DNA from: an uncultured archaeon
GTDB taxonomy: Archaea; Thermoplasmatota; Penumbrarchaeia; JASLWR01
Reading direction: 5' to 3'
Assembly (NCBI GenBank): GCA_964342815.1
Contig: CAYFHS010000010.1
Location: 58,379 to 122,378, forward strand
DNA: 64,000 bases
In this document: piece after piece, positions 1-21,303 of the stretch
How positions within the stretch are numbered: the stretch's first letter is position 1
Layout of the letters: the number at the start of each line of letters is the position of its first letter
Translations under genes and position numbers: made by a program
The notes under the pieces: model-generated
The model's input: only the letters and a program-made list of their open reading frames with translations
Told to the model about the DNA's origin: nothing
Databases searched by the model: none

Positions 1-3000
1 GACCCTGCGGGTATGGATGGAATGATTTCGGGGGCGGGATCTGGGTCGGGATTTGTTTTTTCTCCTTTCTTTTCTTACTTGCGGCAAGCAGGATAACGGC
101 AATCACCGATATCAATATGAGAGATCCGATGATGATCAACAGCCACCAGTATTTTGCCAGCAGGCCATCTTCAGCGGCGTTATTGGACTTCTTTTCATTG
201 AGTTCATTCTCATAGGCATCCATTTTTTCCTGGCTAGCATCATTAGGATCGTTGGGATCAAGGCCATTCTCTATCTCCCACCAATCGGGCAGCAAATCCC
301 CGTCGCTGTCAATGGTATCGTCCCAAACGTTCCCATCATCGTCATCTTCATCCACGGGTCTCGGCACGATCTCTATGCCCAGTTTAACACTCTCATTGAA
401 ACCCAGACCGTCATCCACGTAAAGGTAAACTAAAAATCTGCCTGGCTGGTCCAACACCGCCTGACAGCCGAGACCATGTCCCTTGAACACAGTTTTCTTG
501 CTGGTCTTCCCCTTTATGATCCAGAAATAGCTTAGTTCATCCCCTTCATTATCTTCGCTCCCGGAGGCGTTCAGCTGTATGATGGAACCTTCCTTAAATG
601 TCTCTCCGTCATAAGGTTTCATGATTGACGGAACCGGTGGCGAGTTGATCCATATGCGGTAGGTGTCAGAGATTGAATAGCCGTTCCCCACGGCATCCTT
701 CGCGCGCCACCGGATATAATTATCCTTTCCGGGCTCGAACTGTATTTCCAATGAAACGTCGATGGACTCCTTCACCATGTGGTTACTGATGGCGGTCCAG
801 TTTTGAAAATATTTTTTATCCTCTCCGTACTTGGATACGGCATACTCTATTGTCTTCCCGTCAACACCGCTGCCTCCGGCATCTGAGACGGTTATGCCGC
901 AGATCAGCATGTCTTCAAGAAATATTTCCTCGGTCTCCGGGACCGGCATGGAGAAGGTCACCGGGCTCTTGTCAACCTTAACGGACCATTTCTCGCTCAG
1001 AGCCGGACCATTGCCGGCCAGATCGCTTATTCTCCACCTTATTGTATTATCGCTGCCCTCCGACAGGGGGATGTTCACGTAAGCCCGAACTTTCACAGGA
1101 TTATTCTCGGTACTCTTCTCCAGTATCTCGAATTCCATTCCGTCATTGGTCCAGGATGAGAACGAGTTTCCCCCGGATATCCTGTATGAATATTTGATGC
1201 TCTCCAGATCCAGACCAAAACTATCGATATCAGTAAAGACGGCCTCTGCCAGCGCATTGCCGGAGTTGTACCAAACAGTATTGTCGGGCCCCATTTCGGA
1301 GATCAGAGGGATAGAGGTATCGATATTGAACCGGAAATGGCTGGTATTACCCCACTGATCGTATATATCGGAGGCACAGATATGGAAAAACCAAGTGCCG
1401 TCGGTGAGACCGGAAAATTCCCCTGCAAATGTCCCGGTAATTTCGCTGTTCGGGGTATAGAGAACCTTTGTGGGTTCCGTAAGGGGTGAGGGATCCACCA
1501 AGTAAGAGTATCCTTTGATGCCCCCCACCTCGCGGGGAGGGTCCCATGAAAAGACCGGAAGCGTGCTGTTATAATACATCTCGGGCGTGGGATGTGTTGT
1601 GGAGCTTACATTGATCTCATCCGGACCCAGCAGGTCAAGATAAATTGTGTCGTTGAATATTTCCGAAACGATGCTCGCATTGTCCCGAAACCTGACTCCT
1701 ATAGTTTTCAAGCCGTCCGATGGTACGAGTGAAATCCTCTTTTCTGTCTTGAACTCTTCCCAAGGGCCATCCTTTCCCCTGTCGTTGATGATCTGCATGT
1801 CGGCAATACCGCTGCCGTTATCAGAGGCATTGATGCGGATATCTACCAACTGCTCGTTCACAGTAAGGGCACCTTCCTCGATAGTTATGTTTCTCACCGG
1901 TTTGGTCACATCGATCATGATCTTTTTTAAGGCTGAAAAATTGCTGGACGCATGATATATATCCCTTGTCCGCACCCGCCAGAAATACGTTCCATCTTCC
2001 AGGTCATCCTCAACAACATGTTTTGGGGTAGTGGAGTTTTTCCACGAGCTGTTGAAGACCATGTCAGTTCCCTCATCGTCGCTGTACATTTCAACGAAAT
2101 ACTCCGATTGATGGTCGCCGGGATCTGGATCGGTGAAGTTCCATTCAAGGGTGGGGGTGCTGCTACCCTGCCACTCGTGGGAATTCGGGGCGAATGGTTC
2201 CGGGTCGTCCACAAGGTCTATCTCTATCACCACCTTGTCTATGTAAGGCGTCACCTCTTCATCCTTGGTGGTGAGAGTGGCATTCCACATCAACTGGGAA
2301 CCGATGTGCGTAAACACATGGTTGGTATGATTGGCTACAGTATCCCAGTGCTCCCCGTCAGCTGTAATATTGTAGATTATGTCCGTCCCTGGTGGTTTGT
2401 GTTCATACCAGGTCAACCGAACGGCTCCAACAGCCTTCAGAGTGTCATGCAGAACTTTGGATTGCACGTGAGACCGGTTGTTCATAATTCCTGTGGCTCC
2501 GAAGCGTATGTCGTCGATACCCACCACGTCGCCGCCGTTGTTAGGTATGTTCCAGACCACCGATCGTATGGAATTGACCCCGCCGTCAGTAACTCCCATG
2601 AATACCATGTTGTTCCTCTGATAGTTATTGTTTGGCGCTGTGGCCGTTGCGATGAGATTTCCATTTCCCTGCACACCGGAGTAGCCTTTAAGTCTCATAC
2701 CTCCTCCTTGAAACTTGTCAACCACCATGAACCCGACTCCCGACTGGGCGTTGCCAAAGGTCATGGTAAATTGAGAATTCGGCCCTATGTTTGTCAGCAT
2801 TCCCGATGCTTGATGCGGTCCCTCGCCCTGAATGGCCCCACCCTGGTTTCCTTGGCCCGGCCCTGCGCTATTCTGGACGTTACCGCTGGTGGAGGTCATA
2901 GAACTTATACCTATCCCTGCATAGAAGTTTGCCTGCAATGCGCCGTTTGGATGGTTGTTGAAATTGGCCTGGGTATTGATGAACATACTTCCCATAGCGG

Positions 3001-3343
3001 TATTGAAGTTTGCAAGACTGACATGACCGGTTGGGGAGCCTCCAGCGCCTCCTGCTCCGGATAGAAGTATTCTGCCCTGGAACGTGTCCATCCCAGCGGT
3101 GGAATTGCTGAAATCTATAAAATCTACATTCTTGAAATCATCTATGAAGACCTTGCCGTACCTTGTTTTTGACGTATCGGATTCACTGGGAAAAACATTG
3201 GAAAGACCGGCAAAACACTCTACACTGCTTTGATCCCATCTGTATGAAACACGGAGAATGGATGTGAACGAGAGAAAAGAAACTAGGGAAAGGATCAGCA
3301 CAATTCGCAGAGTACTTGTTTTATCGTTCATCTCATGAGACAT
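1..3343 (-). CDS. Surface adhesin-like paralog P1 (3' end lies outside the window; at least 1114 aa): signal peptide, carrier domain with inserted beta-sandwich tip, FN3/Ig-like stalk, TM helix
   Basis: Not in the ORF track because the frame is open to the window edge. Manual translation from ATG 3343 gives MSHEMNDKTSTLRIVLILSLVSFLSF...TRYGKVFIDDFKN...IGAV-like VGAVRLTWYEHKPPGTDIIYNITADGEHW...WNFTDPDPGDHQSEY...DSDGDLLPDWWE...LLAKYWWLLIIIGSLILISVIAVILLAASKKRKEKK. It is colinear with P2-P5, and the frame is the same at both ends. Confidence 0.92.
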   Translation of the reverse strand, partial: MSHEMNDKTSTLRIVLILSLVSFLSFTSILRVSYRWDQSSVECFAGLSNVFPSESDTSKTRYGKVFIDDFKNVDFIDFSNSTAGMDTFQGRILLSGAGGAGGSPTGHVSLANFNTAMGSMFINTQANFNNHPNGALQANFYAGIGISSMTSTSGNVQNSAGPGQGNQGGAIQGEGPHQASGMLTNIGPNSQFTMTFGNAQSGVGFMVVDKFQGGGMRLKGYSGVQGNGNLIATATAPNNNYQRNNMVFMGVTDGGVNSIRSVVWNIPNNGGDVVGIDDIRFGATGIMNNRSHVQSKVLHDTLKAVGAVRLTWYEHKPPGTDIIYNITADGEHWDTVANHTNHVFTHIGSQLMWNATLTTKDEEVTPYIDKVVIEIDLVDDPEPFAPNSHEWQGSSTPTLEWNFTDPDPGDHQSEYFVEMYSDDEGTDMVFNSSWKNSTTPKHVVEDDLEDGTYFWRVRTRDIYHASSNFSALKKIMIDVTKPVRNITIEEGALTVNEQLVDIRINASDNGSGIADMQIINDRGKDGPWEEFKTEKRISLVPSDGLKTIGVRFRDNASIVSEIFNDTIYLDLLGPDEINVSSTTHPTPEMYYNSTLPVFSWDPPREVGGIKGYSYLVDPSPLTEPTKVLYTPNSEITGTFAGEFSGLTDGTWFFHICASDIYDQWGNTSHFRFNIDTSIPLISEMGPDNTVWYNSGNALAEAVFTDIDSFGLDLESIKYSYRISGGNSFSSWTNDGMEFEILEKSTENNPVKVRAYVNIPLSEGSDNTIRWRISDLAGNGPALSEKWSVKVDKSPVTFSMPVPETEEIFLEDMLICGITVSDAGGSGVDGKTIEYAVSKYGEDKKYFQNWTAISNHMVKESIDVSLEIQFEPGKDNYIRWRAKDAVGNGYSISDTYRIWINSPPVPSIMKPYDGETFKEGSIIQLNASGSEDNEGDELSYFWIIKGKTSKKTVFKGHGLGCQAVLDQPGRFLVYLYVDDGLGFNESVKLGIEIVPRPVDEDDDDGNVWDDTIDSDGDLLPDWWEIENGLDPNDPNDASQEKMDAYENELNEKKSNNAAEDGLLAKYWWLLIIIGSLILISVIAVILLAASKKRKEKKQIPTQIPPPKSFHPYPQG

Positions 3344-3394
3344 GTGAACCAATACCATAATACATGATATACGAAATATTTCATATTTTCGCAA

Positions 3395-6300
3395 TTATTC
3401 TGCAAGGTATCCCTGTGCGCTACAGTTAGTACATGTTATTGTTGTGGGCCGCTCGGTTGTCTCGACCTGGTTCATGGAACCGCAGGCATGGCATTGAACG
3501 CCGGGCAGTTCGGTTTTTTCCTCTACGGGAGACTCAGCAGGCATTTCGGATTCTGTAGTTCCCTCTGTCGGCAGGGAGGAAAATATATCCTCAAGGGGGC
3601 CAGGAACGCTTTCCTCCGTTTCCGGTGCCGGTGATATGGGTCCGTCCACGGCGGGCTGGTCCTGTGTGTTATCCATTCCGGCTTCATTTACCAAGCCGCT
3701 TTCGGCATCGACCTGATCAATTGGGGCCGCTTCCACGCCGGTAGCAGGAGGAAGCGCCTTAAGATCGAGGTTCGGAGTGCCCAGTCCGGAGGTAGACACC
3801 GGAAGAGAATATTCAGGGGAATTTTCAGATGTTTCCTCCTGTTGAGCTCCCATTTCCGGTGCGATCAATGAAAGGTCCAGGGGAGGTAGTGTCAGGTCCA
3901 TGAGCGGCTGTAGTTCCATGGGACTTTCCGTGCTCATGGGGAGTGCGGGTCGATGAGGATCCGGGACGGTACCTGCCGTAGGTGGAAGCTGTACCTGTGG
4001 ATAATTATTAACAGGCGCCCCTCCCGTCCCTCCTCCCCAACCACCACCGGTTCCATAGGACGGAGAATATCCGGGTTGAGATTGCAGCGAAGCGTACATC
4101 TCGGAATACTGCGGATAGTGAAAGTCCCTGGAACCCATTGGGTACGGATCAGGAGAGTAACGCTGCTGAGGGGTATATTCCACATTATCCACCTCTTCTT
4201 CATTTTTCCCCTTTTTCACAGTTATTACGATTATCCCAATTATCATCAGCACTACGAGAACGCCTACAATGAGCAGGATCCACCAGTAACTCGACAGAAA
4301 ATCGTCTTCCACAGCTGTCGCACCCTGATGTTTTGCAAGTTCACTGCGATAGAGATCTTTCTGTGGATCGGTGGCGTCGTTGGGGTTACCCAGGTTCAGG
4401 CCCTTGAGTTCCTCCCACCAGTCCGGGAGCCCGTCGCCGTCGCTGTCCGTTTTATCCTCCCACCGCTTCGTCACTTCGTTTCCTGTGGGTTGGGGGATAA
4501 CCTCGATTGTCAGCTTTATGCTCTCGTTGAAGCCGAGGCCGTCATTCACATACAGGTAAACCAGATATTTGCCAGTTTTGTCAAGTGTGGTATTGGCATC
4601 TGGCCCCCAGGCTTTGAAAACGATCTTTTTGCTGGTCTTCCCCTTTAACTCCCAGTAGTAGCTGAGCTCGTCCCCCTCGTTATCCTCCGTCCCTATAGCG
4701 CTGAGGGTGACTGTGGCGCCATCTTCGAATTTCTGATCGTCGTAAGGTAAGGCAATTACCGGGGAGGGAGCCGAATTGACCCAGATACGGACAACTTCGG
4801 ACACGGCGTATCCGTTCCCAACAGCATCTTTCGCACGCCACATGATATAATTGTCCCGCCCTGGTTCGAACCCAATGTCCATCAGAACTACGAGGATCTC
4901 ATTTACCATGTTGTTGTTCGCATTTGTCCAGTTGACAAAATATTTCGAGTCGTTACCAAATGCAGAGATAGAATATTCCACAGTCTTTCCATCCACACCG
5001 CTTCCGCCTGCATCGCTGATTGTCAGGCCGACGGAAACCATGGTATCTATGGATACAATATCATTGGCAGGAAGCGGATCTGAGAAGGTCACCGGGGTGA
5101 GGTCCACCTTGATGGTAAGCCTATCGCTCTCAACGGGGCCGTTTCCGGATATATCGTTTACGCGCCATAATACAGCGTTCCGGTCACCCTCCGCGAGACC
5201 CAGCTGAACCCATGCCCTGACCTTCACGGGATTATCATCGATACCTTCCTCCAATATCTCGAATTCCATTTCGTCGGACGTCCATCCCGAGAATGTTCCC
5301 TCGCCGCTCTTCCGGTACGAATATTCTATGGTATTGGTGTCCAGACCGAAACCTTCAGCATCGGCAAAGGTGGCCTCCACAAGGATGTCGGTGCGCCTGA
5401 ACCATTCACCGTCCGTCGGAACAAATCCGGAGATAACAGGGGCGATGCTGTCTATGTTGAACCGGAAATGAGTGGTGTTGCCCCATTGGTCGTAAATGTC
5501 ACAGGGAGTTATATGAAAATACCACGTCCCCTCGCTGAGCCCGGCAAACTCGCCGGGATAGGTTCCCGTAAGATCGTTGTTCTGGTTGTAAAGCACTTTA
5601 GGTGGTTCTGTGACAGGCGTGCTGTCCACGGTATACGTATATCCCTTTATACCGGTCACTTCGTACGGCGGTTCCCAGGAGAAGACCGGGAGGGTGCTGT
5701 TATAATACACCATGGGATCCGGATGAGTTGGAGAGGTCACTTCGATATCGAAAGGTCCCTTGAGATCGAAATAGATAGTATCGTTATAATCCTCCGAGAC
5801 GATCCCCGCGTTATCCCGAAACCGAATAATTATCTTCTTCAACCCGTCGAGAGGGGTGAGGGCGAAACGTTTCTCTGTGGCGAATTCCTCCCAGGGACCT
5901 TCGTTCCCCCGATCACCTATGATCTGCATATCCGCAACGCCCGAAGCGTTGTCGAAGGCATGGATGGCCAGGTCGACCAGTTTATCGTTTACCGAGGAAA
6001 TGCCTTCATGTATGGTTATATTGCCCACGGGGCGGGTCACATCGATCTTGAAACTTTTTTTGTAGGAGTAATTGCTGGCGACATTATAGTTGTCCTTTGT
6101 TCGCGCCCTCCAGAAGTATACGCCATCCACCAATGAATCCGATATGGTATGTTCCGTAAAGGAGGAATTCACCCATGAGGAATTGTATATTTGATTGCTC
6201 AACTGTTCATCGTTGTAAATCTCCACCAAGTATTCTGATTGGTAATCGCCCTTATCCGGATCAGTGAAGTTCCACTCCAGTTTCGGGGTCTGGGTTCCCT

Positions 6301-7567
6301 GCCATATATGAGATTGGGGCAGGTGGGGCTGAGGATTGCTGAATAGGTCATACTCGATAATGATCTTGTCTATGTACGGGCTGATATTCTTGTCATCGGT
6401 CTTTATTGTAGCATTCCATCTCAATGCCGATCCGCGGTGCTCTAGAATGTATGACGTTTCGTTCTCAACGGTTATCCAGTTCTTCCCGTCAACACTTAAC
6501 TTGTATATGATTTCCGTACCCTGGGGAAGATGCTCGAACCAGGTGGCTTTCACAGCTCCTATGGTCTTGGCCTCATCATACAGTATTTTCGATTGTATAT
6601 AGGTTATATTCGTGGGAGGCTCGATATCGTTACCGAGGTAGGCGTTGCCGTCTGATATTTTGTAACGGTGTGGGTTGTTGTTGTTGGCAGAAATACAATA
6701 TTCCTCCCCATTGAAAGCCATGTTGTAGATGCTTTCCTGAACGTTGAACTGTCCCACCAAAGCGCCATTGGCCGGGTTGATGATGCCAACATTCTGAATA
6801 TTATTGTTATAGCCCCCCACATATAATAAACCATTAGCAAAGGCAAGACCCCCGTACACCCTGGGATTGCCGTTTATATTGAAATTTCTGACATGCTGCC
6901 CGTTATCCTTTCGGAGAACCCTCACTTGGTTCTGGTTATAAACCATTGCATAAACGTAATTGTCATCGCAGCAAACGCCTCCGGTGGTGCTTCCCATGTG
7001 ATACGACCATATCTGGTTGTTGCCGCGGTCGGACCATTTATAAACTCTGTCATTTCCCCAATTTGCAGTATAGTATGTCCCATCCTTATCTCCCCAGAGC
7101 TGCATAATATTTCCGGTTCCGCTGTTGAAGGAGCCCAGATAGTTGTTATTAATGTCGTACCGGTAGATCGTGCTCCCGGCCCACTGGGGATACCAGTACT
7201 CATTGTATTTAGGACTGAATCCGCCACCGTGTGATCGTGTGTTCTGGTTCATCCTGCCTTTATAGGTAGGCGGGATTATGGGGCTGCTACCCCACAGCAT
7301 AACCCGACCGTCCATTGTGCGAATTGAAGCTGTAGTATTGGAGCTGTCGATATACGTCAGATTGTTGAAATCCTCAACAATTCGATTGCCGTAACGAGTT
7401 TTTGACTCGGAGATTTCAGGAAGCTCTGGTCGCAAAACCCCGGATTTCTTTGTCTCTTCCACAGATGATGTGGAGTGAAATACAATGGAGATCATCAGAA
7501 TGCAGATACCGAAAGATATTAGTTTTGAAAAACCCATTTTTTTCTCAATCAAGAAATTTATTGGCAT
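3395..7567 (-). CDS. Surface adhesin-like paralog P2 (1390 aa): propeller-like tip, conserved stalk, TM, Pro-rich tail, C-terminal Zn ribbon
   Basis: Long ORF with GGTGG SD upstream of ATG and an N-terminal hydrophobic signal. Contains DSDGDGLPDWWE, a TM segment YWWILLIVGVLVVLMIIGIIVITVKK and C-terminal CHAC..RP..CTNC. Confidence 0.93.
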   Translation of the reverse strand: MPINFLIEKKMGFSKLISFGICILMISIVFHSTSSVEETKKSGVLRPELPEISESKTRYGNRIVEDFNNLTYIDSSNTTASIRTMDGRVMLWGSSPIIPPTYKGRMNQNTRSHGGGFSPKYNEYWYPQWAGSTIYRYDINNNYLGSFNSGTGNIMQLWGDKDGTYYTANWGNDRVYKWSDRGNNQIWSYHMGSTTGGVCCDDNYVYAMVYNQNQVRVLRKDNGQHVRNFNINGNPRVYGGLAFANGLLYVGGYNNNIQNVGIINPANGALVGQFNVQESIYNMAFNGEEYCISANNNNPHRYKISDGNAYLGNDIEPPTNITYIQSKILYDEAKTIGAVKATWFEHLPQGTEIIYKLSVDGKNWITVENETSYILEHRGSALRWNATIKTDDKNISPYIDKIIIEYDLFSNPQPHLPQSHIWQGTQTPKLEWNFTDPDKGDYQSEYLVEIYNDEQLSNQIYNSSWVNSSFTEHTISDSLVDGVYFWRARTKDNYNVASNYSYKKSFKIDVTRPVGNITIHEGISSVNDKLVDLAIHAFDNASGVADMQIIGDRGNEGPWEEFATEKRFALTPLDGLKKIIIRFRDNAGIVSEDYNDTIYFDLKGPFDIEVTSPTHPDPMVYYNSTLPVFSWEPPYEVTGIKGYTYTVDSTPVTEPPKVLYNQNNDLTGTYPGEFAGLSEGTWYFHITPCDIYDQWGNTTHFRFNIDSIAPVISGFVPTDGEWFRRTDILVEATFADAEGFGLDTNTIEYSYRKSGEGTFSGWTSDEMEFEILEEGIDDNPVKVRAWVQLGLAEGDRNAVLWRVNDISGNGPVESDRLTIKVDLTPVTFSDPLPANDIVSIDTMVSVGLTISDAGGSGVDGKTVEYSISAFGNDSKYFVNWTNANNNMVNEILVVLMDIGFEPGRDNYIMWRAKDAVGNGYAVSEVVRIWVNSAPSPVIALPYDDQKFEDGATVTLSAIGTEDNEGDELSYYWELKGKTSKKIVFKAWGPDANTTLDKTGKYLVYLYVNDGLGFNESIKLTIEVIPQPTGNEVTKRWEDKTDSDGDGLPDWWEELKGLNLGNPNDATDPQKDLYRSELAKHQGATAVEDDFLSSYWWILLIVGVLVVLMIIGIIVITVKKGKNEEEVDNVEYTPQQRYSPDPYPMGSRDFHYPQYSEMYASLQSQPGYSPSYGTGGGWGGGTGGAPVNNYPQVQLPPTAGTVPDPHRPALPMSTESPMELQPLMDLTLPPLDLSLIAPEMGAQQEETSENSPEYSLPVSTSGLGTPNLDLKALPPATGVEAAPIDQVDAESGLVNEAGMDNTQDQPAVDGPISPAPETEESVPGPLEDIFSSLPTEGTTESEMPAESPVEEKTELPGVQCHACGSMNQVETTERPTTITCTNCSAQGYLAE

Positions 7568-7583
7568 ATGCTACCACCTTGTT

Positions 7584-7708
7584 ATACACGTATAAATTAT
7601 CGTAAAAATAAAGATTACGATATAGCTTATTAAGCGGGAAATCGAATCCCAATTAAGAAATACTCTATCTTTTTTCCTACATTTAAATTTTTATATTCCT
7701 ACTTCGAA
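7584..7708 (-). promoter_or_regulatory. Putative promoter elements upstream of P2, conserved upstream of P4
   Basis: ATACACGTATAAATTAT (7584-7600) matches 16488-16504 at 15 of 17 positions. Block 7666-7708 aligns with 16541-16582. Both contain AT-rich TATA-like cores on the minus strand. Confidence 0.5.
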
Positions 7709-7847
7709 TTTTTTAGATTTCTAAAATTCACTATTATTTACACGACATCAAAGCAAATAAATCAAGAACCTCATGTCAGCGACAAAACATTCTTGGGGCT
7801 GTCCCTAAATAGAATCGATCCTTATGTCAAGAGACAAAAAGGGTAAT

Positions 7848-10800: not shown

Positions 10801-12008
10801 GGATCTGTGAAATTCCATTCCAGAGTGGGGGTCGAAGTACCCTGCCATACTTCCGAATTCGGCTTATTCGGTTCCGGTTGGCTCACCAGATCATACTCTA
10901 TTATTACCTTGTATATCGCTGGAGATATCTCCGGATCATTCGTCCTCATGGTGGCGTTCCATCTCAGCTTTGATCCCTGGAATTCGAATATATGGTTCGT
11001 TGCATTCTCCATGGTCACCCAGTGTTCATCATCCACTGTCATATTGTAGATGATACTGGTACCAGGCGGTGTGTTCTCATACCAGATGATTCTCGCTGCC
11101 CCGATGGTCGGCATCTTATTGTGAATGATGTGGGAATGTATGTATCCCAGCTTCTTGTCGCCGGAGAACATGCTGCCAGGTAGCTCAATTGCCATAACGG
11201 CCAAAGTCTGGGAACCTTGATGATTGCTTTCCTCCCGAAGCGGTGTGCGCCCGTCCAGCTCCGTGGCCATCCCAACAGCGTTTGCATTGGTCCAATCGTT
11301 GCAGGTCTGCCCGTTTACAAATTGTCCTCTTACATTCGAGCCTGTCCAGCCGTCAGCATCCGACCAATCGGGATTGGCACCGGTATTCTCATTCACTTCA
11401 CGGTTAACAAAGGTTCTTAAATATCCTCCATTGGACCAGCTTGGATTGTCACCCTGAAATATTCGGTTCCAATTGTTATACATGGCGTTCTTGTTTCGGT
11501 CTACTATTGGCATGTTGGATGCATAAGGCTCAGGTATGATATCCTTCATGTGCTGCTGCGATGAAGACAGCATTGCCTTCCAGCGAGAGGCCCCGAATCC
11601 CTGCTGCGCAGCATTCTGGTTGACCAGACTATCAGCTCCTGCAATACCACCCATATTTCCATTGTGGGCATTGTCCATGGCTGTGAAAATGAGCTTTCCG
11701 GGGAATGTTTCCGTCCCTCCCAGAAACACGATACCCCGGCTGGTATCCACTCCTGCGCTGGTATTTGTAAGGTCGATCCCTTCGGCGTTATCGAAATCCT
11801 CCACAATAACGTTTCCGTAGCGCGTTCTCAAAGAAGATTCGCCTGAAGTTCCCGCATTATCGTACCCTGCGATCACAAAGGCATCGGTTGGGATCGGATC
11901 GCTCTTATATGGAAAGGAACTGTTAAGAAATAAAATTAGTAATGTGATGGAAAGCAGGGAAACCATCAATCTGGTCTTATTTTTATCTGAAAACCTCATA
12001 GAGACCAA
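7848..12008 (-). CDS. Surface adhesin-like paralog P3 (1386 aa) with an endostatin/DUF1554 (C-type-lectin-fold)-like tip domain
   Basis: Same carrier, stalk, TM and tail as P2. Tip motifs NGNMGGIAGAD, WKAMLSSSQQ, MPIV, WNRIFQG, WTGS..G, TCNDW, VMAIE. The start may be ATG 11999. Confidence 0.92.
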   Translation of the reverse strand: MVSMRFSDKNKTRLMVSLLSITLLILFLNSSFPYKSDPIPTDAFVIAGYDNAGTSGESSLRTRYGNVIVEDFDNAEGIDLTNTSAGVDTSRGIVFLGGTETFPGKLIFTAMDNAHNGNMGGIAGADSLVNQNAAQQGFGASRWKAMLSSSQQHMKDIIPEPYASNMPIVDRNKNAMYNNWNRIFQGDNPSWSNGGYLRTFVNREVNENTGANPDWSDADGWTGSNVRGQFVNGQTCNDWTNANAVGMATELDGRTPLREESNHQGSQTLAVMAIELPGSMFSGDKKLGYIHSHIIHNKMPTIGAARIIWYENTPPGTSIIYNMTVDDEHWVTMENATNHIFEFQGSKLRWNATMRTNDPEISPAIYKVIIEYDLVSQPEPNKPNSEVWQGTSTPTLEWNFTDPDKGDHQSDYLLEIYSELEMNTMVYNTTWLNSTEPKHVLVKELEDGTYYWRVRTKDIYHAPSNFSILKKILIDVTKPIGNITIEDGALSVNEQLVDIAIKASDNGSGIADMQITGDRGNVGPWEEFKSGKRVSLTPKDGIKKIRVRFRDHAGIVSDEFNDTVYFDLTGPFDIEVSSSTHPDDQMYYNSTLPVFSWDPPYEVTGIKGYSYTVDSTPLSEPTKVLYSQNSDLVETSPGEFAGLSEGIWYFHITPCDVYDQWGNTTHFQFNIDSVPPVVSQIVTSSGDWHGTTEILSQVTFLDPEGFGLDEESLAYTYRKSGENSFTAWTDDGIEFEVLERSTEKNPLKVRAWASIELNEGAENAVMWRITDMSGNGPTLSEKLQIKVDLSPVTFSDPLPAFDEVSSETSVSIGINIDDSGGSGVDGKTIEYSTSKYGDDEKYFINWTNINYNLVKETMDLLMDIQFEPGRDNYVKWRAKDAVGNGFAESEAFRVWVNSAPVPVIDRPYDGETFEEGSIIHLNATGTEDNEGDELNYYWEIKGKTTKKIHFKGYGIGTQTTLAQVGKYLLYLYVNDGYGFNESVKLTIEVTPKPTESEVEERWDDTTDSDGDELPDWWEKLNGLDPDNPNDATTESKEKYDAELREHQVKSGPEKSLLSDYWWLLVIGAAVVIILIIMIIIIAVRKKRKKEREQKGELPRLRASQGSYPPSVGAYYQPPHSNTATGYQAQAVSGTPYGGATGYGQGNFPQSGGGYAPTTSGQMPSYQAPYAGGGQQLPLAANQLSPTGSTYNPPALPAPRVAQIGAAPLSPGIPNYSLPEFSTERGTMNLNRMALPPAPEDETGTVGAFDPSTAMPAQEPLSFDALPGTMADPQPVAPVPEIPPSVPSSSPAVPQVVPRSPQPLISTAKSADDLLNDIFGQRQSGELPLPPAEPPLPTQSPPAPEIPPTPSPQSIPCHACGAVNQVTTNVRPAVVICSSCGVQGFAV

Positions 12009-12203
12009 CTAAAAACTAACACGGTAAACAAGATATTTCATTTTTTCTCAATATGTTGTCATAAGAGTGAACTTTAACCAGTTGTAAGGCATCGGAGAGT
12101 CATCAATGTTGCGTGCTCATTAATGATGGTATTTCAGAATGACTGCTTTTTTTCGAAAATAAAATCAATTGAAATAGGGTTAGGCCGAGATCGCCGTCCA
12201 ATT

Positions 12204-15200
12204 TTATTGTGCGAGATATATCTGGGTGCCGCAGGAAACACAGGTCACGGTGGTGGGTCGTACGGCAGTCATAACCTGATTCATGGAGCCGCAGCCATGA
12301 CATTGTATACTGGGCAATTGCGGAATACCCGGGATAGGAGGAGGAGAAACCATATCCGGTACCGGAGGTTCGGGAGAAGATAAACCTGGGGGCGGCGACG
12401 AAAAGATATTGTCCAGTGGACTCGAACCGCCTTCCACCGGTACCGCCGGAGCGGGCGTAGGGGGCGCTTCCGGGGAGGGTGTTGAATTGATTCCCGGTAA
12501 AGGCGGTATGTAGATAGGCTGCACCGCACCTGATTGCTCGAATGCGCCAGGCAAACCTTTTCCACTTGTTCCGTCGCCTGCAATTGGGATTTGCCCCCCT
12601 GGGGATGTTTCCTCGGGAGGTGCAGGGGGAAGGGCCATGAGATTGAGGTTTTGAGTCCCCTGTTCGGAGGTGAACGCTGGCAGGCTGTATGCTGGCGGGG
12701 TGAAAGACGGTGAAGCTGACTGAGCTTCGGTTCCCTGTGCAGTGGTTATAGGGCTCTGAGGTGGAATGGCCATGTCCTGCACGGGCTGTATTTCCGCCGG
12801 TCCCGTGTACATTGGAAGAGCGGGTCTTTCAGGTACAGGGCTAGCACCTGCTGCAGGTGGCAGTTGTGCCATGGGATACTTCATATAATTTGGCTGACTT
12901 CTTTCCTGTCCGCTTCCCCACCCACCACTGCTTCCATAAGCGGGAGAGTACGCGGACTGAGATTGGTGGGAAGCATACATCTCGGAATACTGCGGATTAT
13001 GGAAATCCCTGGAACCAATTGGATACGGCTCGGGAGAATAGCGCTGCTGTAAGGCGTTTTCCATCTCTTTTTCTTCTTCTTCCTTCCTCTTCTTTTTCGC
13101 CACAATGACTATTATTCCAACGATCAAAGCCACTATGATAAAGCCCACTATAAGAAGAACCCACCAGTACCTCGACAGGAGGTTTTCCTCCCCGACTTCC
13201 GCACCCATATGTTCTGACAGTTCAACTCGATAAAGATCCTTTTGTTCATCAGAACCGTCGTTGGGATTGTCCGGATTCAGCCCATTGAGTTTCTCCCACC
13301 AGTCCGGGAGCCCGTCGCCATCGCTGTCAGTTGTATCCTCCCATCGTTTTATAATATCGATACCGGTGGGCTTCGGAGTAACCTCAATGGTAAGTTTTAA
13401 GCTCTCGTTGAAGCCGAGTCCGTCATCCACATGAAGGTACACCGAATACTTACCCTGCTGATCCAGTGCTGTGCTTGCATCGGGCCCCCAGCCTCTGAAA
13501 ACGATCTTTTTACTGGTCTTGCCCTTTATCTCCCAGTAATAACTCAGTTCGTCCCCCTCGTTGTCCTCCGTCCCGGAGGCATTCAGGCGGACAGCGGCGC
13601 CTTCTTCGAATTTCTCGTCGTCGTATGGTAGGGCGATGACCGGCGTCGGGGCAGAATTGACCCAGACCCTGACTGCATCGGACACGGCGAAATCGTTCCC
13701 CACCGCATCCTTCGCACGCCACTTTATATAGTTGTTCCGACCGGGTACGAACTCTATATCCTGCAGGATCACCAGGGTCTCCTTTACCATATTGTTGTTG
13801 GGATTTGTCCAGTTTATAAAATATTTCTCGTCGTCCCCATATGCGGAAATCGAATATTCCACAGTCTTTCCATCCACACCGCTTCCACCAGTATCGCTGA
13901 TGGTCAGACCTGCTGAAACCAGGGTATTCTTGGATACCTCGTCATGGGCCGGAAGCGGGTCGGAGAAGGTCACTGGGGTAAGGTCCACTTTGATCGCATG
14001 CCGTTCGCTTTCGATGGGTCCGTTCCCTGAAATATCGTTTATACGCCACATCACGGCATTCCTGTCCCCTTCTACTAGATCGAGCTCAACCCATGCCGTG
14101 ACCTTCACAGGATTGTCATCGATACCTTCTTCCAGTACATCGAATTCTATTCCATCACCGGTCCATCCAGAGAATGTTCCCTCGCCGCTTTTCCGGTATG
14201 AATAGGCAATACTTTCAGTATCCAGACCGTAACCGTCTGCGTCGGTGAAGGTGGCCTCGACGCGGATTTCGGTGCGTCTGTACCATTCGCCGTCCAATGG
14301 AGAAATCTCGGAGATCGCCGGAGCTACGCTGTCTATGTTGAATCTGAAATGGGTGGTATTACCCCATTGATCGTAAATGTCGCAGGGAGTGATGTGGAAA
14401 TACCATTTTCCCTCGCTCAGTCCCGCGAACTCCCCAGGATAGGTTCCCGTAAGATCGCTGTTCTGGTTGTAAAGCACTTTGGTGGGTTCGGTGAGAGGGG
14501 TACTGTCCACCGTATAGGAATATCCTTTTATGGCGGTCACTTCATAGGGTGGGTTCCATGAGAAGACAGGAAGCGTGCTGTTGTAATACACCAGCTGGTT
14601 AGGGTGAGTAGGAGAGGTCACATCGATATCGAAGGGTCCTTTGAGATCGAAGTATATGGTATCGTTGTAAAGCTCGGAAACGATACCTGCGTTGTCCCGG
14701 AACCTCACGCTGATCTTTTTCAGGCCGTCGAGAGGGGTGAGAGCGATACGTTTTTCGGTCTTATATTCCTCCCACGGCCCTTCGTTCCCCCGGTCCCCAA
14801 TGATCTGCATATCTGCTACGCCCGATGCGTTGTCCGAGGCATAAATGGCAATGTTGACCAGTTTATCGTTAACAGAGAGGATATCCTCCTCTATGGTGAT
14901 GTTGCCGACGGGTTTCGTCACATCGATCTTGAAACTCTTAATGACCGAGTAATTGCTGGCGACGTGATAGACGTCCTTGGTTCGAGCCCTCCAATAATAT
15001 ATGCCATCCTCCAGCGCTTCGGTGATGGTGTGCTCTGTAAAAGTTGAATTCACCCATGACGAATTGTAAACCTGATTGGTCAGTTCCTCATCGTCGAATA
15101 TCTCAACCTGGTATTCGGACTAGTGGTCGTTCTTATCAGGGTCTGTGAAATTCCATTTAAGCTTCGGTGTTCGAGTGCCCTGCCAGACCTCGGATGTTGG

Positions 15201-16451
15201 TAGATGGGGCTGGGGACTGCTGAAGAGATCGTAGTCGATGACCACCTTGTCGATGTAAGGGCTGATGCTTTTATCGTTGGTCTTTATGGTGCCGTTCCAC
15301 CTCATGGGCGACCCGCGGTGTTTGAATACGTGGGTGGTTCCGTTCTTCATATTGACCCAGTTCACCCCGTCCAGGGTCAGTTTGTACTCGACATCGGTAC
15401 CCTGGGGCTTGTGCTCGTACCAGGTCATCTTGGCGGCGCCAATTGTCTTGGTGTCATCGTAAAGTATCTTGGACTGGAAATGTGTTATGTTTGTTGGAGG
15501 TTCAACGTCATCACCGAGATAGGCGTTTCCGTCACTGATCTTATACTTCAAGACGTTTGCGTTGTTGGATGATACACAGTAGTTCTCGCCGTCGAATGCA
15601 GAATTGTAGATATTCGTCTGAACCCTGAATTCACCTATCTTCTGATTGTTGTGGGGGGTGAACATTGCCACTCTCTGGTAGTCCCGATTGTAGCCTCCGA
15701 TATACAGAATACCATTGGCAAAAGCCATGGTCCCATAATCATAGCATGTGGCGCCTATACCCCATGTTCGTACATGCTGACCATTGTCCTTTCTTAGAAC
15801 GTAAACATTGCTGTCATACCACCTCATTGCATAGACATAGGTATCATCACAGCATACGGAACCCGCCGTGCTGCCGAGGTTGTATGACCATATCTGATTG
15901 TTTCCCCTGTCACTCCATTTGTAAATCCTGCGGTTCCCCCAGTTCGCGGTATAATAGGTGCCGTCCTTGTCACCCCAGAGCTGCATCATCTGGTTCGACC
16001 CGGAATTGAAAGTACCCAAATACTGCCCGGCCCTGGTATACCTGTAGATGGTGCTTCCCGACCAATGAGGATACCAGAACTCATTATATTTCGGGCTGAA
16101 TCCCCCGCCGTGAGAACGCGTATCCATATTCATTGATCCCTCGTTTGTTGGCGGGATCACAGGGCTGCTGCCCCAGAGATAGGCTCGGCAGTCCATGCTG
16201 CGAACAGAGCATGTAGTGTTGGACCGGTCCACCATGGTGTAGTTGTTGAAATCCTCCACAACTCGATTCGCAAAGCGCGTGCCGGATAACTCCGCGTCCG
16301 GGGCCAAGACCTTTTCGATAACAGTATCTTTAGGTCTTTCAATGGATGACCCGTGAAAAACCAGGAGAAGCATCATGATAAATACGACAAAAGCAAACGT
16401 TTGTTTCAACAAACCTTTTTCAGTGAAGAAAGACTCAATTGGCATATGCAA
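12204..16451 (-). pseudogene. Paralog P4 (1415 aa if read through), interrupted by one in-frame TAG at 15120-15122
   Basis: ORFs 15120..16451 and 12204..15053 are in the same frame. The junction reads DPDKNDH*SEYQVEIFDDEELTNQVYNSSWVNSTF, and P1, P2, P3 and P5 all have Gln at the * position. AGGTGA SD precedes the start. Confidence 0.85.
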
Positions 16452-16487
16452 TCACCTAAGACACCGGTGTGAGAAATGATGGTCCGA

Positions 16488-16582
16488 ATACACGTTAAAA
16501 TTATTTGGTGAGACCATCAAAATTTATTATAGATCGGCTTTATCTTTCTTCGTACTTATATATTTTTCATCTCTACCTCGAA
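16488..16582 (-). promoter_or_regulatory. Putative promoter elements upstream of P4, conserved upstream of P2
   Basis: ATACACGTTAAAATTAT and tatctttcttcgtacttatatatttttcatctctacctcgaa align with 7584-7600 and 7666-7708. Confidence 0.5.
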
Positions 16583-16660
16583 ATTAATTTATTTTGATAT
16601 TTGAATTTAGGTCTAAAAAAAAGAGAGAAATATTTATTCAGTTTTTTTATTAAAAACCAC

Positions 16661-19600
16661 TCAAGGAGCTGGAGGTTTTGGGGGCGGTTGCGGAGAGGTT
16701 TTGGGGGTTTTCGGACCGAAAATATCGTCGAGAACATCGTCCTCGGTGCTCATGGGGGGAGCAGCATGGGATTCCATTGATTCAGGAGGCGAAACAGCAG
16801 GGGCGACCGATCCGGATTGGGCTTCCGACCATTTTGTTGAGGGTGAGGGGGGAGATATTACTGGGGATCCGGAAACGGTTACTGGATCGGGTGTAATATG
16901 TGAGGCTGATGGAGGTGCTATCACGGTGGGTTTGGGCATGCTTGTGGGCTCACGTGTTCTGGGTGATGGTGTTGGAGGTTCTATCACCGTGGATTTTGAC
17001 ATGCTTGTGGGCTCAGGTGTTCTGGGTGATGGTGTTGGAGGAGATATAATGGGGGTTTCAGAGACTAGTCTTGGATCAGGTGTTATCGGTGATGAAGGTG
17101 CTATTACCGTGGGTTTGGACATACTTATGGGCTCGGGTTTTATGGGTGTTGGTGTTGGGGGAGATATATTGGGGTATTTAGAGACTGGTATTGGGTCAAG
17201 CGTTATGGGTGATGGTGTTAGGGGAGATATAATGGGGTTTTCAGAGACTGGTGTGGGATCCGATGTAATTTGTGAGGCTGATGGAGGTGCTATTATTGTG
17301 GGTTTGGACACGTTGATGGGCTCCGGTTCAACCGGCGATGCTGTTGTGGGTGATATTGCAGTGGTCTCCGGGACCATAGTAATTGGTATGAGTGATTCCA
17401 CAGTCTCCGAAGGGTAGGTTGGCTCCTCGAAGGTTTTTTTCATCTCCTCATCCCCCGCTGCAGGGGGAAGTGCCAATCGATTTAGGTTTATGGTACCTTG
17501 CTCCGATGTGAAAGAAGGTAAAGAATATTGGGGCGGGGTCGGCGAGCTGATCACTTGTTCATACTGTTGTCCCTGCTGAGCGGGCTGGATTGAAGGAGTC
17601 ACGGGAGAAATTACATTAGAAGGTTGTTGTACGGGAAAGATCTGTTGCTGCGCTACAGGGACCTGTGAAGCCATGGGAAGGGCAAGAGGCATATGTCCGG
17701 GCCCCGTAGAACCGGCAGACGGCAGCTGAGGATAAGTATCCGGACGGCCCCCGAATTGCGTGTTCGCCCCTTTTGAGGATCCCCAGCTCGAGAATTGTGT
17801 TCCATAAGCCGGATGTGACTGGTAAGTGTTTGTCATCTGCGAATATTGGGGTGGGTAAAAATCCCTGCTTCCAACCGGGTACGGTCTCTCCGGAGCTATT
17901 CGATTTGGCATGGCGTTTTCCGTTTCTTCTTCCTTCTTCCGCTTATTTTTTGCCACAACAACGATACCGATGATCACTATTAAAATTAGTGCACCGATGA
18001 TAATCAGAACCCACCAGTATTTTGAGAGCAGACCTTCCTCCGTGATTTTAGCGCCTTTTTGTTCATCCAATTCCCTTTTGTAGGTTTGTTTCATCTCCTG
18101 GGTCGCGTCATGGGAATCATTTGGATCAAGGCCGTTCATTTTCTCCCACCAGTCCGGCAGCGAGTCCTCGTCGGTGTCAGTAGTATCCTCCCATCTCACT
18201 TCAGCTTCTTTTCCGGTAGGTTTCGGTTCGATCTCAATATCCAGCTTCACGCTTTCATTGAAACCATAACCGTCGTCCACGTGTAAATAGACCAGGTATT
18301 TACCCGGTTGATCCAATGTTGCCTGTGTCTCCTTCTGGTATCCTCTGAATACGATCTTCTTGCTTGTTTTTCCCTTTATCACCCAGTAGTAACCAAGCTC
18401 GTCTTCCTCGTTGTCATTGGTCCCTTCGGCACTCAGGCGAATTGAAGAACCTTCCACGAAGATCTCTTCATCATATGGCGCGTCGATCACAGGCTCCGGG
18501 GGTGAGTTGATCCATACCTGGCTCGCTTCGGACACTGAATAACCATTTCCCACTGCATCCCTTGCCCGCCATTTAATATAGTTATCACGACCCGGTTGAA
18601 ACTCAATATCCACCAATATGTTCAAACTCTCTTTGATCATGTTGTTGCTCATACCCGTCCAGTTGACAAAGTTTTCATCGTCGTTACCCCAGGCGGATAT
18701 GGAATACTCTACGGTCTTTCCGTCCACACCGCTGCCGCCCATATCGGTGATCGTGATACCTGCGGACACTGTAGTTTCCGTGGATATCTCATCATCCGGG
18801 ATCGGATCGGAAAAGGTTACCGCGGTTAGGTCCACCTTGACCGCCCGCTTTTCGCTGTTCACCGGTCCGTTGCCGGACATATCGGAAACACGCCATATCA
18901 CAGCATTCCGGTCACCTTCATTGAACACGATATCGGTCCATGCCCTGACCTTGACGGGATAACCTTCTTCCCCGTCCTCCAGTATTTCAAAATCCATCCC
19001 GTCGCTGTTCCAACCCGAAAATGTTCCCTCCCCGCTCTTTCTGAAAGAGTAGGCAATACTGTTGGTATCGAGCCCGTAGCCGTTTCTGTCGTAAAATGTT
19101 GCTTCAGTTCTTACACTGGTGGTCCCGAACCAGACATTCACAGATGGAACAAGCTCGGAAACCACGGGAAGGACGCTGTCGATGTTGAATTGAAAATGGG
19201 TGGTATTACCCCATTGATCGTACACGTCACAGGGTGTGATATGGAAATACCAGGTTCCCTCCCCGAGTCCGGCAAATTCACCTGCATATGTTCCGGTAAG
19301 GTCCCCGTTAGGGGAATAAAGCACTTTTGTAGGCTCCGTAAGAGGAGTGCTGTCCACAGTGTACGAATATCCCTTGATACCCGTAACCACATACGGAGGC
19401 TCCCAGGAGAATACCGGGAGCGTGCTGTTGTAATAGACCAGGGATTCGGGGTGGGTGGAAGATGAAATTATAACATCGTATGGTCCCTTGAGATCGAAAT
19501 AGACCGTATCATTGAAATCTTTCGAGATTATACCGGCATGGTCCCGGAACCTGACACTGATTTTTTTCAGTCCGTCAGTGGGAGAAAGAACTATTTTTTT

Positions 19601-21303
19601 CTCAGTATTATATTCCTCCCAGGGTCCCTCGTTTCCCCTGTCACCGATGAGCTGCATGTCAGCCACACCACTGCCGTAATCCGAGGCATTGATCCGTAGT
19701 TCGACCAATTTATCATTGACCGATAGCACATCCTCCTCTATGGTTATATTTCCAACTGGCTTCGTGACATCGATCATGATTTTCTTAAGTACTGAAAAGT
19801 TGCTTGCGGCGTGGTATCCGTCCTTTGTTTGCACCCTCCAGTAATAAACACCATCGTTGAGTGCTTCATTGACCGTATGCTCCCAGAATGAAGAATTTAT
19901 CCATGATGAGTTATACCGAATTTCATTCATGCTTTCATTGTCATAGATTTCCACGAGATAATCCGACTGTATGTCGTTCTTGTCGGGATCGGTGAAATTC
20001 CATTCGAGTTTTGGAATGTTGGTTCCCTGCCATGTTGTAGAGCTGGGGGCGTATGGCTCCGGTTCGCTGAACAGGTCGAACTCGATTGTGATCTCTTCCA
20101 TGATGGGTCCGTCATCTACATCTTCAGCCGTAAGCGTGGCATTCCACATCAGCTTCGCCCCCTTATGGTAAAAATGTGGTTTTCACCTGGGGTTATCTCC
20201 TCCCAGTTCACACCATCGGCTGTAACCTTGTAGTCTATGCTCGTACCCTGGGGTTTGCTTTCCACCACGTCGAGTCTAACAGCTCCGATAGTATGTTTTC
20301 CCTGATAAAGCGGTTTCGACTGAACGTACCTAATCTTTGAAGTGGGATCCACACGGTCGCCGAAGTAGGAGTTACCTTCAGAAATCCGATATTTGGATAC
20401 CGAGTTGCCGTTATCCGACACACAGTACTCTTCCCCGTTGTACGCCATATTGTATATGTGCCGATTAGTCCGAAAATCTCCCAGATAGTTACCGTTGCTT
20501 GGATTGAACATACCGACCCTTCTATGATCGCGATTGTATCCCCCGATATACAAAATGCCATTGGCATAGGCCATGGTACCGTAATTATAACAGGTTGCGC
20601 CAATATTGAAGTTCCTCACGTTCTGCCCGTCGCTCTTTCGAAGCACTCTGACCTGGCTGTCATGCCATCGCATAGCGTAAACGAATTGACTATCGCAGGT
20701 TACCGATCCCGCGGTGGACCCTATATTGAAAGACCAGACCTGTCTAACTTGCCAATTGCCGGGGTCCACTGCCCATTTTTTAATAGTATTGTATCCCCAA
20801 TGGGCTCCGTAGAAACTTCCATCGACATCGGACCAGACCTGCATCATCTGCCGTTCGCCATTATTGAACTGCCCCAGCCCCGAATATCCGCTGTTGTACC
20901 TATAGATAGTATTTCCCGACCACTGTGGATACCAGTACTCATCCACCATGGGGGAAAAGCCGCCTCCGTGTGAACGGGTGTTCATATTCACTGTGCTAAC
21001 ATATGCCGGGGAAATGGACTTACTTGATTCGAAAGTGATCTTCCCTGCTTTCGTGTTTATGGTGCAGGATGTGTTGCTTATGTCGATATTGTTGAGATTT
21101 TTAAATTTCTCAACAATTTTATTTCCATAGCGTGTGTAGTAGGGCGGAACGTCGGGTAAGACTGTTGATTGGACCTGTCCCGATCTCTCCGGGGAGACCG
21201 CTACCGGGGGATGAATTGTGAAGGATAAGAGTTGGACGAGAAGAACGCAAACGGCCAATAGACTGATCCAGCTATGCTTTACCCGAAATTTATCTATTGA
21301 CAT
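16661..21303 (-). pseudogene. Paralog P5 (~1547 aa if repaired), split by a 1-nt frameshift at ~20158-20166 into 20149..21303 (tip) and 16661..20149 (stalk, TM, tail)
   Basis: The minus strand reads ACC ATA AGG GGG CGA AGC TGA TGT GG. Adding one base restores F-T-(H-K or I-R)-G-A-K-L-M-W-N-A-T, matching paralog HRGSALRWNAT. The stop and restart overlap as TGATG. Confidence 0.85.
16838..17326 (-). repeat. Coding tandem repeat, 8 units of ~63 bp (21 aa, Pro/Ser/Thr-rich), in the P5 cytoplasmic tail
   Basis: Units PEPINVSKPTIIAPPSASQIT / SDPTPVSENPIISPLTPSPIT / ... / PEPTSMSKSTVIEPPTPSPRT / REPTSMPKPTVIAPPSASHIT. catgcttgtgggctca recurs at 16937 and 17000, a 63-nt period. Confidence 0.9.

Follow-up and report, generated by a model that had tools for sequence, protein, structure and literature searches.

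A seven-gene archaeal array of surface proteins carrying different putative binding tips in a split carrier domain

In a 64,000-nucleotide stretch of DNA from an uncultured archaeon of the Thermoplasmatota (GenBank assembly GCA_964342815.1, contig CAYFHS010000010.1), here called the window, we analyzed a tandem array of giant surface-protein genes in which different tips are inserted at one site of a shared carrier domain. The results indicate that the array probably encodes a fixed panel of N-glycosylated adhesins or receptors with putative binding tips, shaped by ancient domain capture and by concerted evolution of the stalks. The window corresponds to C10:58379-122378 of the 4.35-Mb genome (G000), and L001 denotes a segment that reaches to the left of the window (L001:3122 equals C10:47121). 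The sequencing runs that contain this DNA are marine metagenomes, and the habitat makes membership in Ca. Penumbrarchaeia family 3A plausible (PMC12220078). The comparison set consisted of four genomes (G000 itself, G001 of the same genus, G002, and G003) and a few contigs, including L050.

The initial annotation, made from the letters of the window, had described at least five paralogs with a common chassis and had pointed to the left flank for more copies. The five genes, P1 to P5, all on the minus strand, occupy positions 1-21303 of the window, and two further members, Pa and Pb, were found to the left (C10:49030-57406), so that the array extends to seven tandem genes. The breaks in P4 and P5 described below had been missed. 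Beyond Pa and Pb, the left end of the gene row is a convergent tail-sheath gene. Dispersed copies of the family were found on C3, C1, and C16 (n = 3), with one divergent relative on C12.

Each protein consists of a signal peptide, a carrier N-half of 41 amino acids (aa), a tip, a carrier C-half of 95 aa, a stalk, a transmembrane segment, a proline-rich linker, and a tail. Hidden Markov models (HMMs) of the halves scored 56-80 bits for the N-half and 130-160 bits for the C-half in the G000 copies, where the halves flank an insert of 179-247 aa. The single common insertion site was as annotated, and the insert length differed from the ~170-230 aa given at first. The FN3/Ig/PKD stalk is colinear and measures 638-642 aa up to a DxDGDxLPDWWE motif, after which come an L..[YW]WW transmembrane segment and the proline-rich tail, bearing out the shared chassis in all five genes. 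A CxxC..CxxC zinc-ribbon motif terminates the tail in six of the seven array copies; it is absent from P5 and from several relatives. The proteins thus combine the parts of a modular head-on-stalk adhesin, namely an export signal, an Ig/FN3/PKD extender, a cell anchor, and a distal binding-type domain. N-glycosylation sequons numbered 0 in the tips (7 of 7), 2-6 in the carriers, and 12-16 in the stalks of each protein. This distribution suggests a sugar-coated stalk bearing a bare working tip, and the many carrier sequons suggest a structural role for the carrier domain.

The annotation had further proposed that the carrier is split around the tip. When the two halves were predicted as separate chains, they paired with a score of 0.67, the best control reaching 0.02; the runs agreed on at least 84% of contacts, and the predicted local distance difference test (pLDDT) value of the partner was at least 72. 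Of 80 solved complexes, 58 attained this mark, as did 2 of 110 mismatched pairs. Since a similar fold has already been solved, passing the mark may reflect resemblance to that fold. In the model of the P1 head, both carrier halves were confident. Both halves superposed as one domain on residues 497-1152 of the phage phi812 protein 9euf (Z 14.6, root mean square deviation [rmsd] 2.5, 134 aligned), and the carrier aligned with residues 567-886 of the HFTV1 protein 9h4p (Z 11.9, rmsd 2.7, 125 aligned), with further phage tail proteins, and with uninterrupted CBM16 and CBM61 domains (Z 8.7-8.8). In these predicted models both halves contribute to a single beta-sandwich, which can be superposed on CBM16/61 and on the split domain of phi812, and they do not fall apart into two independent domains, the outcome that the annotation had named as speaking against it. 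Judged by the models, the carrier is one domain, a discontinuous galactose-binding-domain-like jelly-roll split around the tip. Searches of Pfam and PHROGs found no family for it.

A profile search with the C-half matched 1464 cluster representatives. Among the top matches were several giant bacterial flagellins, in which a run of N-halves is followed by a central insert and a run of C-halves, the counts of the two halves being equal (18/18 in P0002 and 15/15 in P0003). The pairing test used motif-based repeats, because the HMM missed N-repeats, and P0001, P0004, P0005, and P0008, with truncated or degenerate N-repeats, were left out. Nested pairing of the halves in P0002 and P0003 gave correlations of r 0.42 and 0.55 (p 0.001 and 0.003), and off-by-one pairing gave r of at most 0.19, in agreement with a domain split around its insert. 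A single carrier with an insert of 163-717 aa also occurs in many other secreted proteins. Taken together, the complex prediction, the alignment to phage folds, the flagellin repeats, and the wide occurrence therefore indicate that the socket is real but generic.

The flagellins P0002, P0003, P0004, P0005, and P0008 are themselves giant proteins of 1320-2859 aa. In their variable region, split jelly-rolls are nested like Russian dolls, up to 18 deep, and in P0002-P0004 they enclose a propeller-like insert; a literature search found no paper on nested jelly-roll flagellins. P0006, P0019, and P0029 combine short N-terminal repeat runs with 8-11 carrier C-halves; by inspection, the start of P0029 resembles a phage distal tail protein.

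The tips were catalogued from 37 complete heads in the four genomes and assigned to lettered classes (for example, A, B, C, D, E, F, H, and I). Nine tip sequence classes share the one site, or at least eight when the divergent relative is left out, and inserts of different classes had no BLAST match to one another. The class D tip, carried by P2, P4, and P5, is predicted to be a propeller nearest to five-bladed glutaminyl cyclase and olfactomedin (for glutaminyl cyclase 3mbr, Z 20.7, rmsd 3.6, 209 aligned, 12% identity), and it did not match the glutaminyl cyclase family in Pfam at E values up to 1. The class E tip of P3 matched PF06482 (E 5.8e-20; 72.1 bits, the curated cut-off being 29.4). 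Of the three insert folds first proposed, the propeller and the endostatin-like domain thus stood; the beta-sandwich of P1 was unconfirmed, its tip being modelled with a pLDDT below 50 and no confident fold. The class F tip is olfactomedin-like. Tips A, B, C, H, and I matched no Pfam or PHROGs family; the atlas leads for tips C and A were weak or unnamed, and no short stand-alone relative of tip C turned up when such proteins were sought.

Three of the tip classes have relatives at 50-64% in other chassis, two of these classes in proteins of Myxococcota or Deltaproteobacteria. Tip D is present, carrier-free and at about 40-54% identity, in 2-7 copies per Myxococcota protein of 4000-6400 aa; relatives of tip A lie at the ends of Deltaproteobacteria-type giant surface proteins (48-59%); and tip C of P1 is 64% identical to the insert of a different chassis (P0160 and P0161). 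The tips are, to judge from these matches, mobile modules. The Myxococcota-type proteins holding class D propellers (L036-L045) are Cys-rich. Another metagenome contig (L048:1-19209) holds a tandem array of four proteins of 1700-1900 aa; their heads differ and are apparently inserted in a different conserved module, one of them being tip C at 64%. It seems that more than one chassis has evolved this design. A second array of eight genes in G000 (C1:139518-175687; also C26, C53, C2, and C15) shares a related distal stalk and a zinc-ribbon tail. Its heads are N-terminal, variable, and non-inserted, and two of them are weaker, distant relatives of tips D and F.

The initial annotation had interpreted the array as a cassette-type repertoire that diversifies binding by exchanging whole domains at a fixed site. 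Since unrelated domains occupy one site, domain replacement did happen in the past, and that part of the proposal stands; ongoing exchange of tips does not. The gene order sheath-A-B-C is identical in G000, G001, and L050, so that relatives within the genus share both the tips and their order, which is for the most part what the annotation had listed as contrary evidence; between genera, the copies are regrouped. The tips are the most conserved part of the proteins. Within-genus orthologues are 92.7% identical in the tip (range of tips, 85-99%), 87.9% in the carrier, and 80.8% in the stalk, and the corresponding cross-genus values are 74%, 59%, and 50%. The ratio of nonsynonymous to synonymous substitution rates (dN/dS) was 0.045 for tips, compared with 0.10 for stalks.

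Trees of the two parts conflict. The carrier tree clusters by tip class, and genome clades were rejected (approximately unbiased [AU] test, p 0.0026 and 5e-7); monophyly of C (p 0.30), F (p 0.059), and D was left unrejected, with D support of 49/93. The stalk tree clusters by genome, with G002 and G003 clades at 100/99, and its AU tests reject clades formed by the tip lines A, F1, C, and E (p ≤ 1.6e-4). Concerted evolution, in which paralogues within a genome are more alike than orthologues across genomes, was likewise seen in stalk segments (e.g., 68.7 vs 57.5%) and reversed in the carrier, where the N-half gave 40.9% for same-genome paralogues and 55.3% for orthologues. The crossover lies beyond the carrier: compared with same-genome paralogues, orthologues are the more alike in each carrier half and the less alike once the FN3 domain begins. 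The breakpoints are found in the stalk, downstream of the carrier, rather than at the tip.

Individual genes point the same way. In G000 and G001 alike, P5 is a class D head on the stalk of the A line (Pa), with identities between P5 and Pa of 42-47% in the carrier and 70-95% in the distal stalk. Two class D copies in G003 have stalks that are 83-95% identical and tips that are 61% identical. At the array locus, G001 lacks P3 and has a single D gene. Through residue 600 this gene resembles P4 at 88-94%; thereafter, P4 is no closer to it than P2 is. This pattern, together with the missing P3, fits an unequal crossover. Plain ancient paralogy with zero recombination would account for tips and order conserved within the genus. 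Different folds at one site, however, require replacement events, and the significant conflict between stalk and head trees, barring model artefacts in the AU tests, and the chimera of P5 and Pa add to making such a history extremely improbable.

An active cassette system, in which dedicated or frequent recombination swaps tips in the fixed carrier so as to vary binding or evade viruses, would explain the sharp common insertion site, the nine tip classes, and the mobility of tip modules across chassis. It is nevertheless very unlikely in view of the conserved tips and order in G000, G001, and L050 and the low divergence of the tips. The tip borders share no DNA motif or recombination-site repeats, and the paralogues are 64-76% alike in DNA, their longest exact common tract being 36 nucleotides (nt) and located in the stalk. 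Contigs of four runs from three studies were near-identical in sequence and showed no joint at a tip border and no tip-swapped form, with the proviso that contigs drop rare variants; joints in run X1, all on one contig with neighbouring paralogues, were not taken for rearrangements. As regards a linked site-specific recombinase, the flanking genes scanned, which did not take in every small open reading frame, were those for the sheath, ScpA, an Ig-like protein, and the C25 peptidase. The comparisons suggest instead a stable old toolkit in which whole heads recombine against stalks, not actively switching cassettes.

Several points weigh against the picture of a split carrier and a fixed panel. 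The comparison set is a limited sample. Colinear pairing of the flagellin halves in P0002 and P0003 correlates too, if less than nested pairing (r 0.28 and 0.41). The carrier tree is built on 136 columns with class monophyly unproven, so that a few later tip swaps could hide in it. Composition or long branches could also aid the genome-wise stalk clades. The compositions are similar, and the dispersed C16 line, which remains orthologous across genera, escapes the stalk homogenisation, which argues against a composition artefact.

The following account fits these results best. The proteins are probably single-pass surface adhesins or receptors, and the Thermoplasmatota family that encodes them comes from oxygen-deficient seawater. 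The carrier loop can take any domain with neighbouring ends, so that the carrier would act as a folding-tolerant socket that holds a whole binding domain aimed away from the cell. A pool of mobile extracellular modules may have supplied each tip class through one rare capture, in most cases before the genera diverged. Whole heads, carrier and tip together, would later have been reassorted through duplication, loss, unequal crossing-over, and gene conversion in the long stalk. The tips may recognise conserved ligands; the likeliest are glycans or proteins of particles or of other cells, and the strong purifying selection on the tips suggests stable ligands, not an arms race. The copies would then work side by side as a fixed panel, without switching.

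The proteins might instead be not adhesins but receptors for polymer capture or sensing, either SusE/F-like surface binders or one-pass sensors whose output is the zinc ribbon. The jelly-roll, CBM-like, and lectin-like folds, the neighbouring genes for a secreted C25 peptidase and PKD proteins, and the conserved cytoplasmic CxxC..CxxC motif are in keeping with this idea. The array nevertheless has no transporter or kinase gene, and the zinc ribbon is missing from P5 and several relatives; we therefore consider it a possible but rather doubtful alternative to a panel of adhesins.

The genes of the array, with P1 to P5 read from the minus strand, are arranged as follows. Pa and Pb (L001:5031-9146 and L001:9334-13407) carry tips of classes A and B, two further tip types. 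P1 (1-3358; 1411 aa) extends 878 nt past the left edge of the window to C10:57501 and has a class C tip of 189 aa at 2483-3049, probably beta-rich and of unconfirmed fold, between a carrier N-half at 3050-3172 (41 aa) and a C-half at 2198-2482 (95 aa). P2 (3395-7567; 1390 aa) is intact; its class D tip at 6614-7282 is a 223-aa beta-propeller with a predicted five-bladed glutaminyl cyclase/olfactomedin-like fold, and its carrier halves lie at 7283-7405 and 6329-6613. P3 (7848-11999; 1383 aa), also intact, has an endostatin/DUF1554-like class E tip of 184 aa at 11157-11708 and carrier halves at 11709-11831 and 10872-11156; other assemblies, when queried for an exact match to P3, yielded none. 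P4 (12204-16445; class D tip at 15495-16163) is broken by an in-frame TAG at 15120-15122, which recurs in contigs from a second sample of the same study. P5 (16661-21303; class D tip at 20341-21018) has a one-base frameshift near 20178, within the carrier C-half; every contig that shows the frameshift comes from the possible source sample. The orthologues of both genes are intact in G001. G001 and G003 contain frameshifted family members of their own (L018:5808-10054, L024:13832-18189, and L025:10208-14616). That relatives have their own broken copies, and that P4 and P5 are broken here, is expected of birth-and-death turnover.

Next to the array stands the solitary tail-sheath gene (PF04984; L001:3122-4552, equal to C10:47121-48551), convergent with the last array gene. 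PF04984 is a marker used to identify archaeal injection systems (PMC12352652). All four family genomes have the sheath gene, which adjoins array genes in G000, G001, G003, and L050; in G002, it is on a different contig from every family copy found. A baseplate-J gene lies at C1:55295, and a tail-tube search with PF06841 gave no match, its controls being silent too. The array proteins could accordingly be prey or partner receptors for a dispersed contractile injection system, with tips that recognise target cells and a zinc-ribbon tail that couples binding to the intracellular machine. The position of the sheath gene, the baseplate-J gene on C1, the relatives of tips A and D, at 50-63%, in giant surface proteins of Myxococcota and Deltaproteobacteria, and the carrier fold shared with phage tail proteins are all compatible with this function. 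The sheath gene, however, faces the array from the opposite strand in convergent orientation, and so is not co-transcribed with it. The contig separation in G002, the membrane anchoring of the array proteins, which are not tail parts, and the generic presence of the carrier in secreted proteins also leave such receptors unlikely. A more specific version, scarcely better placed and if anything a little less likely, is that of a predatory or antagonistic marine archaeon: the array would be its target-recognition panel, made of binding domains shared with giant surface proteins of myxobacteria and mounted in a phage-tail-type split adaptor beside a sheath gene, and the zinc-ribbon tail would relay binding to a domesticated contractile injection system.

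Other neighbouring genes also encode surface or secreted proteins. A secreted gingipain-type C25 peptidase of 1501 aa with an Ig/PKD stalk (window 24053-28558) adjoins P5, and a gene of 1499 aa at the same position in G001 has a start similar to it. A 2080-aa beta-helix/NosD-repeat surface protein is encoded at window 43886-50128 in a low-GC stretch; guanine-plus-cytosine content is 34-36% at 44-48 kb of the window and about 47% around it.

We then compared the probable adhesin panel with known systems; a literature search of incomplete coverage found no description of this archaeal family. Bacterial adhesins of the RTX/LapA/MpIBP type and the Methanobrevibacter adhesin-like proteins have long Ig-like extenders and distal ligand-binding modules and form multi-copy families. 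Their binding modules are appended, whereas those of the array lie inside a domain; the array is moreover anchored by a C-terminal transmembrane helix with a zinc-ribbon tail, and its tips are conserved, not hypervariable. In streptococcal antigen I/II and in flagellin variable domains, an out-and-back chain topology exposes a variable domain at the tip, but folds and anchors are different and there is no array of different tips. The Methanosarcina surface-layer protein 1l0q, with a YVTN propeller and PKD domains, is also an archaeal surface protein and was the top Foldseek match of the P2 head; no carrier surrounds its propeller, and the likeness is limited to the propeller part (TM-score 0.31, rmsd 17.9). 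Integron, shufflon, and antigenic-variation arrays are marked by recombination-site repeats or near-identical DNA beside the variable segment, and by a variable segment that diverges among close relatives or evolves under diversifying selection; none of these was found here.

The closest structural parallels are the phage 812 protein of 9euf, which has 1152 residues, is annotated DUF4815, and is taken to be the tripod protein, and the HFTV1 tail protein (9h4p chain BD; bioRxiv 10.1101/2024.12.09.627619). Both have a discontinuous jelly-roll that matches both carrier halves and has other domains inside. The tripod protein is putatively receptor-binding, and its base and fin domains are CBM16/61-like sandwiches (PMC13433997). 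The two phage proteins differ from those of the array in being virion components encoded by single genes, without signal peptide, stalk, transmembrane helix, or a paralogous tip set. The yeast FLO, ALS, and EPA families are paralogous head-on-stalk surface proteins that form chimaeras through ectopic recombination (PMC3512402), as the array appears to do. In the yeast proteins a single head fold sits on tandem-repeat stalks, whereas the array heads have several folds in a split adaptor.

The array is a clear natural example of the making of a surface-binding repertoire. The split jelly-roll may be a general socket across archaeal receptors, phage tails, and giant flagellins, and heads that are fixed on stalks that are homogenised would be the reverse of antigenic variation. 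The tips, being small, apparently unglycosylated, and highly conserved, lend themselves to expression on their own and to screens for ligands. Such screening would give a handle on how an uncultured archaeon of oxygen-minimum zones attaches, feeds, or attacks.

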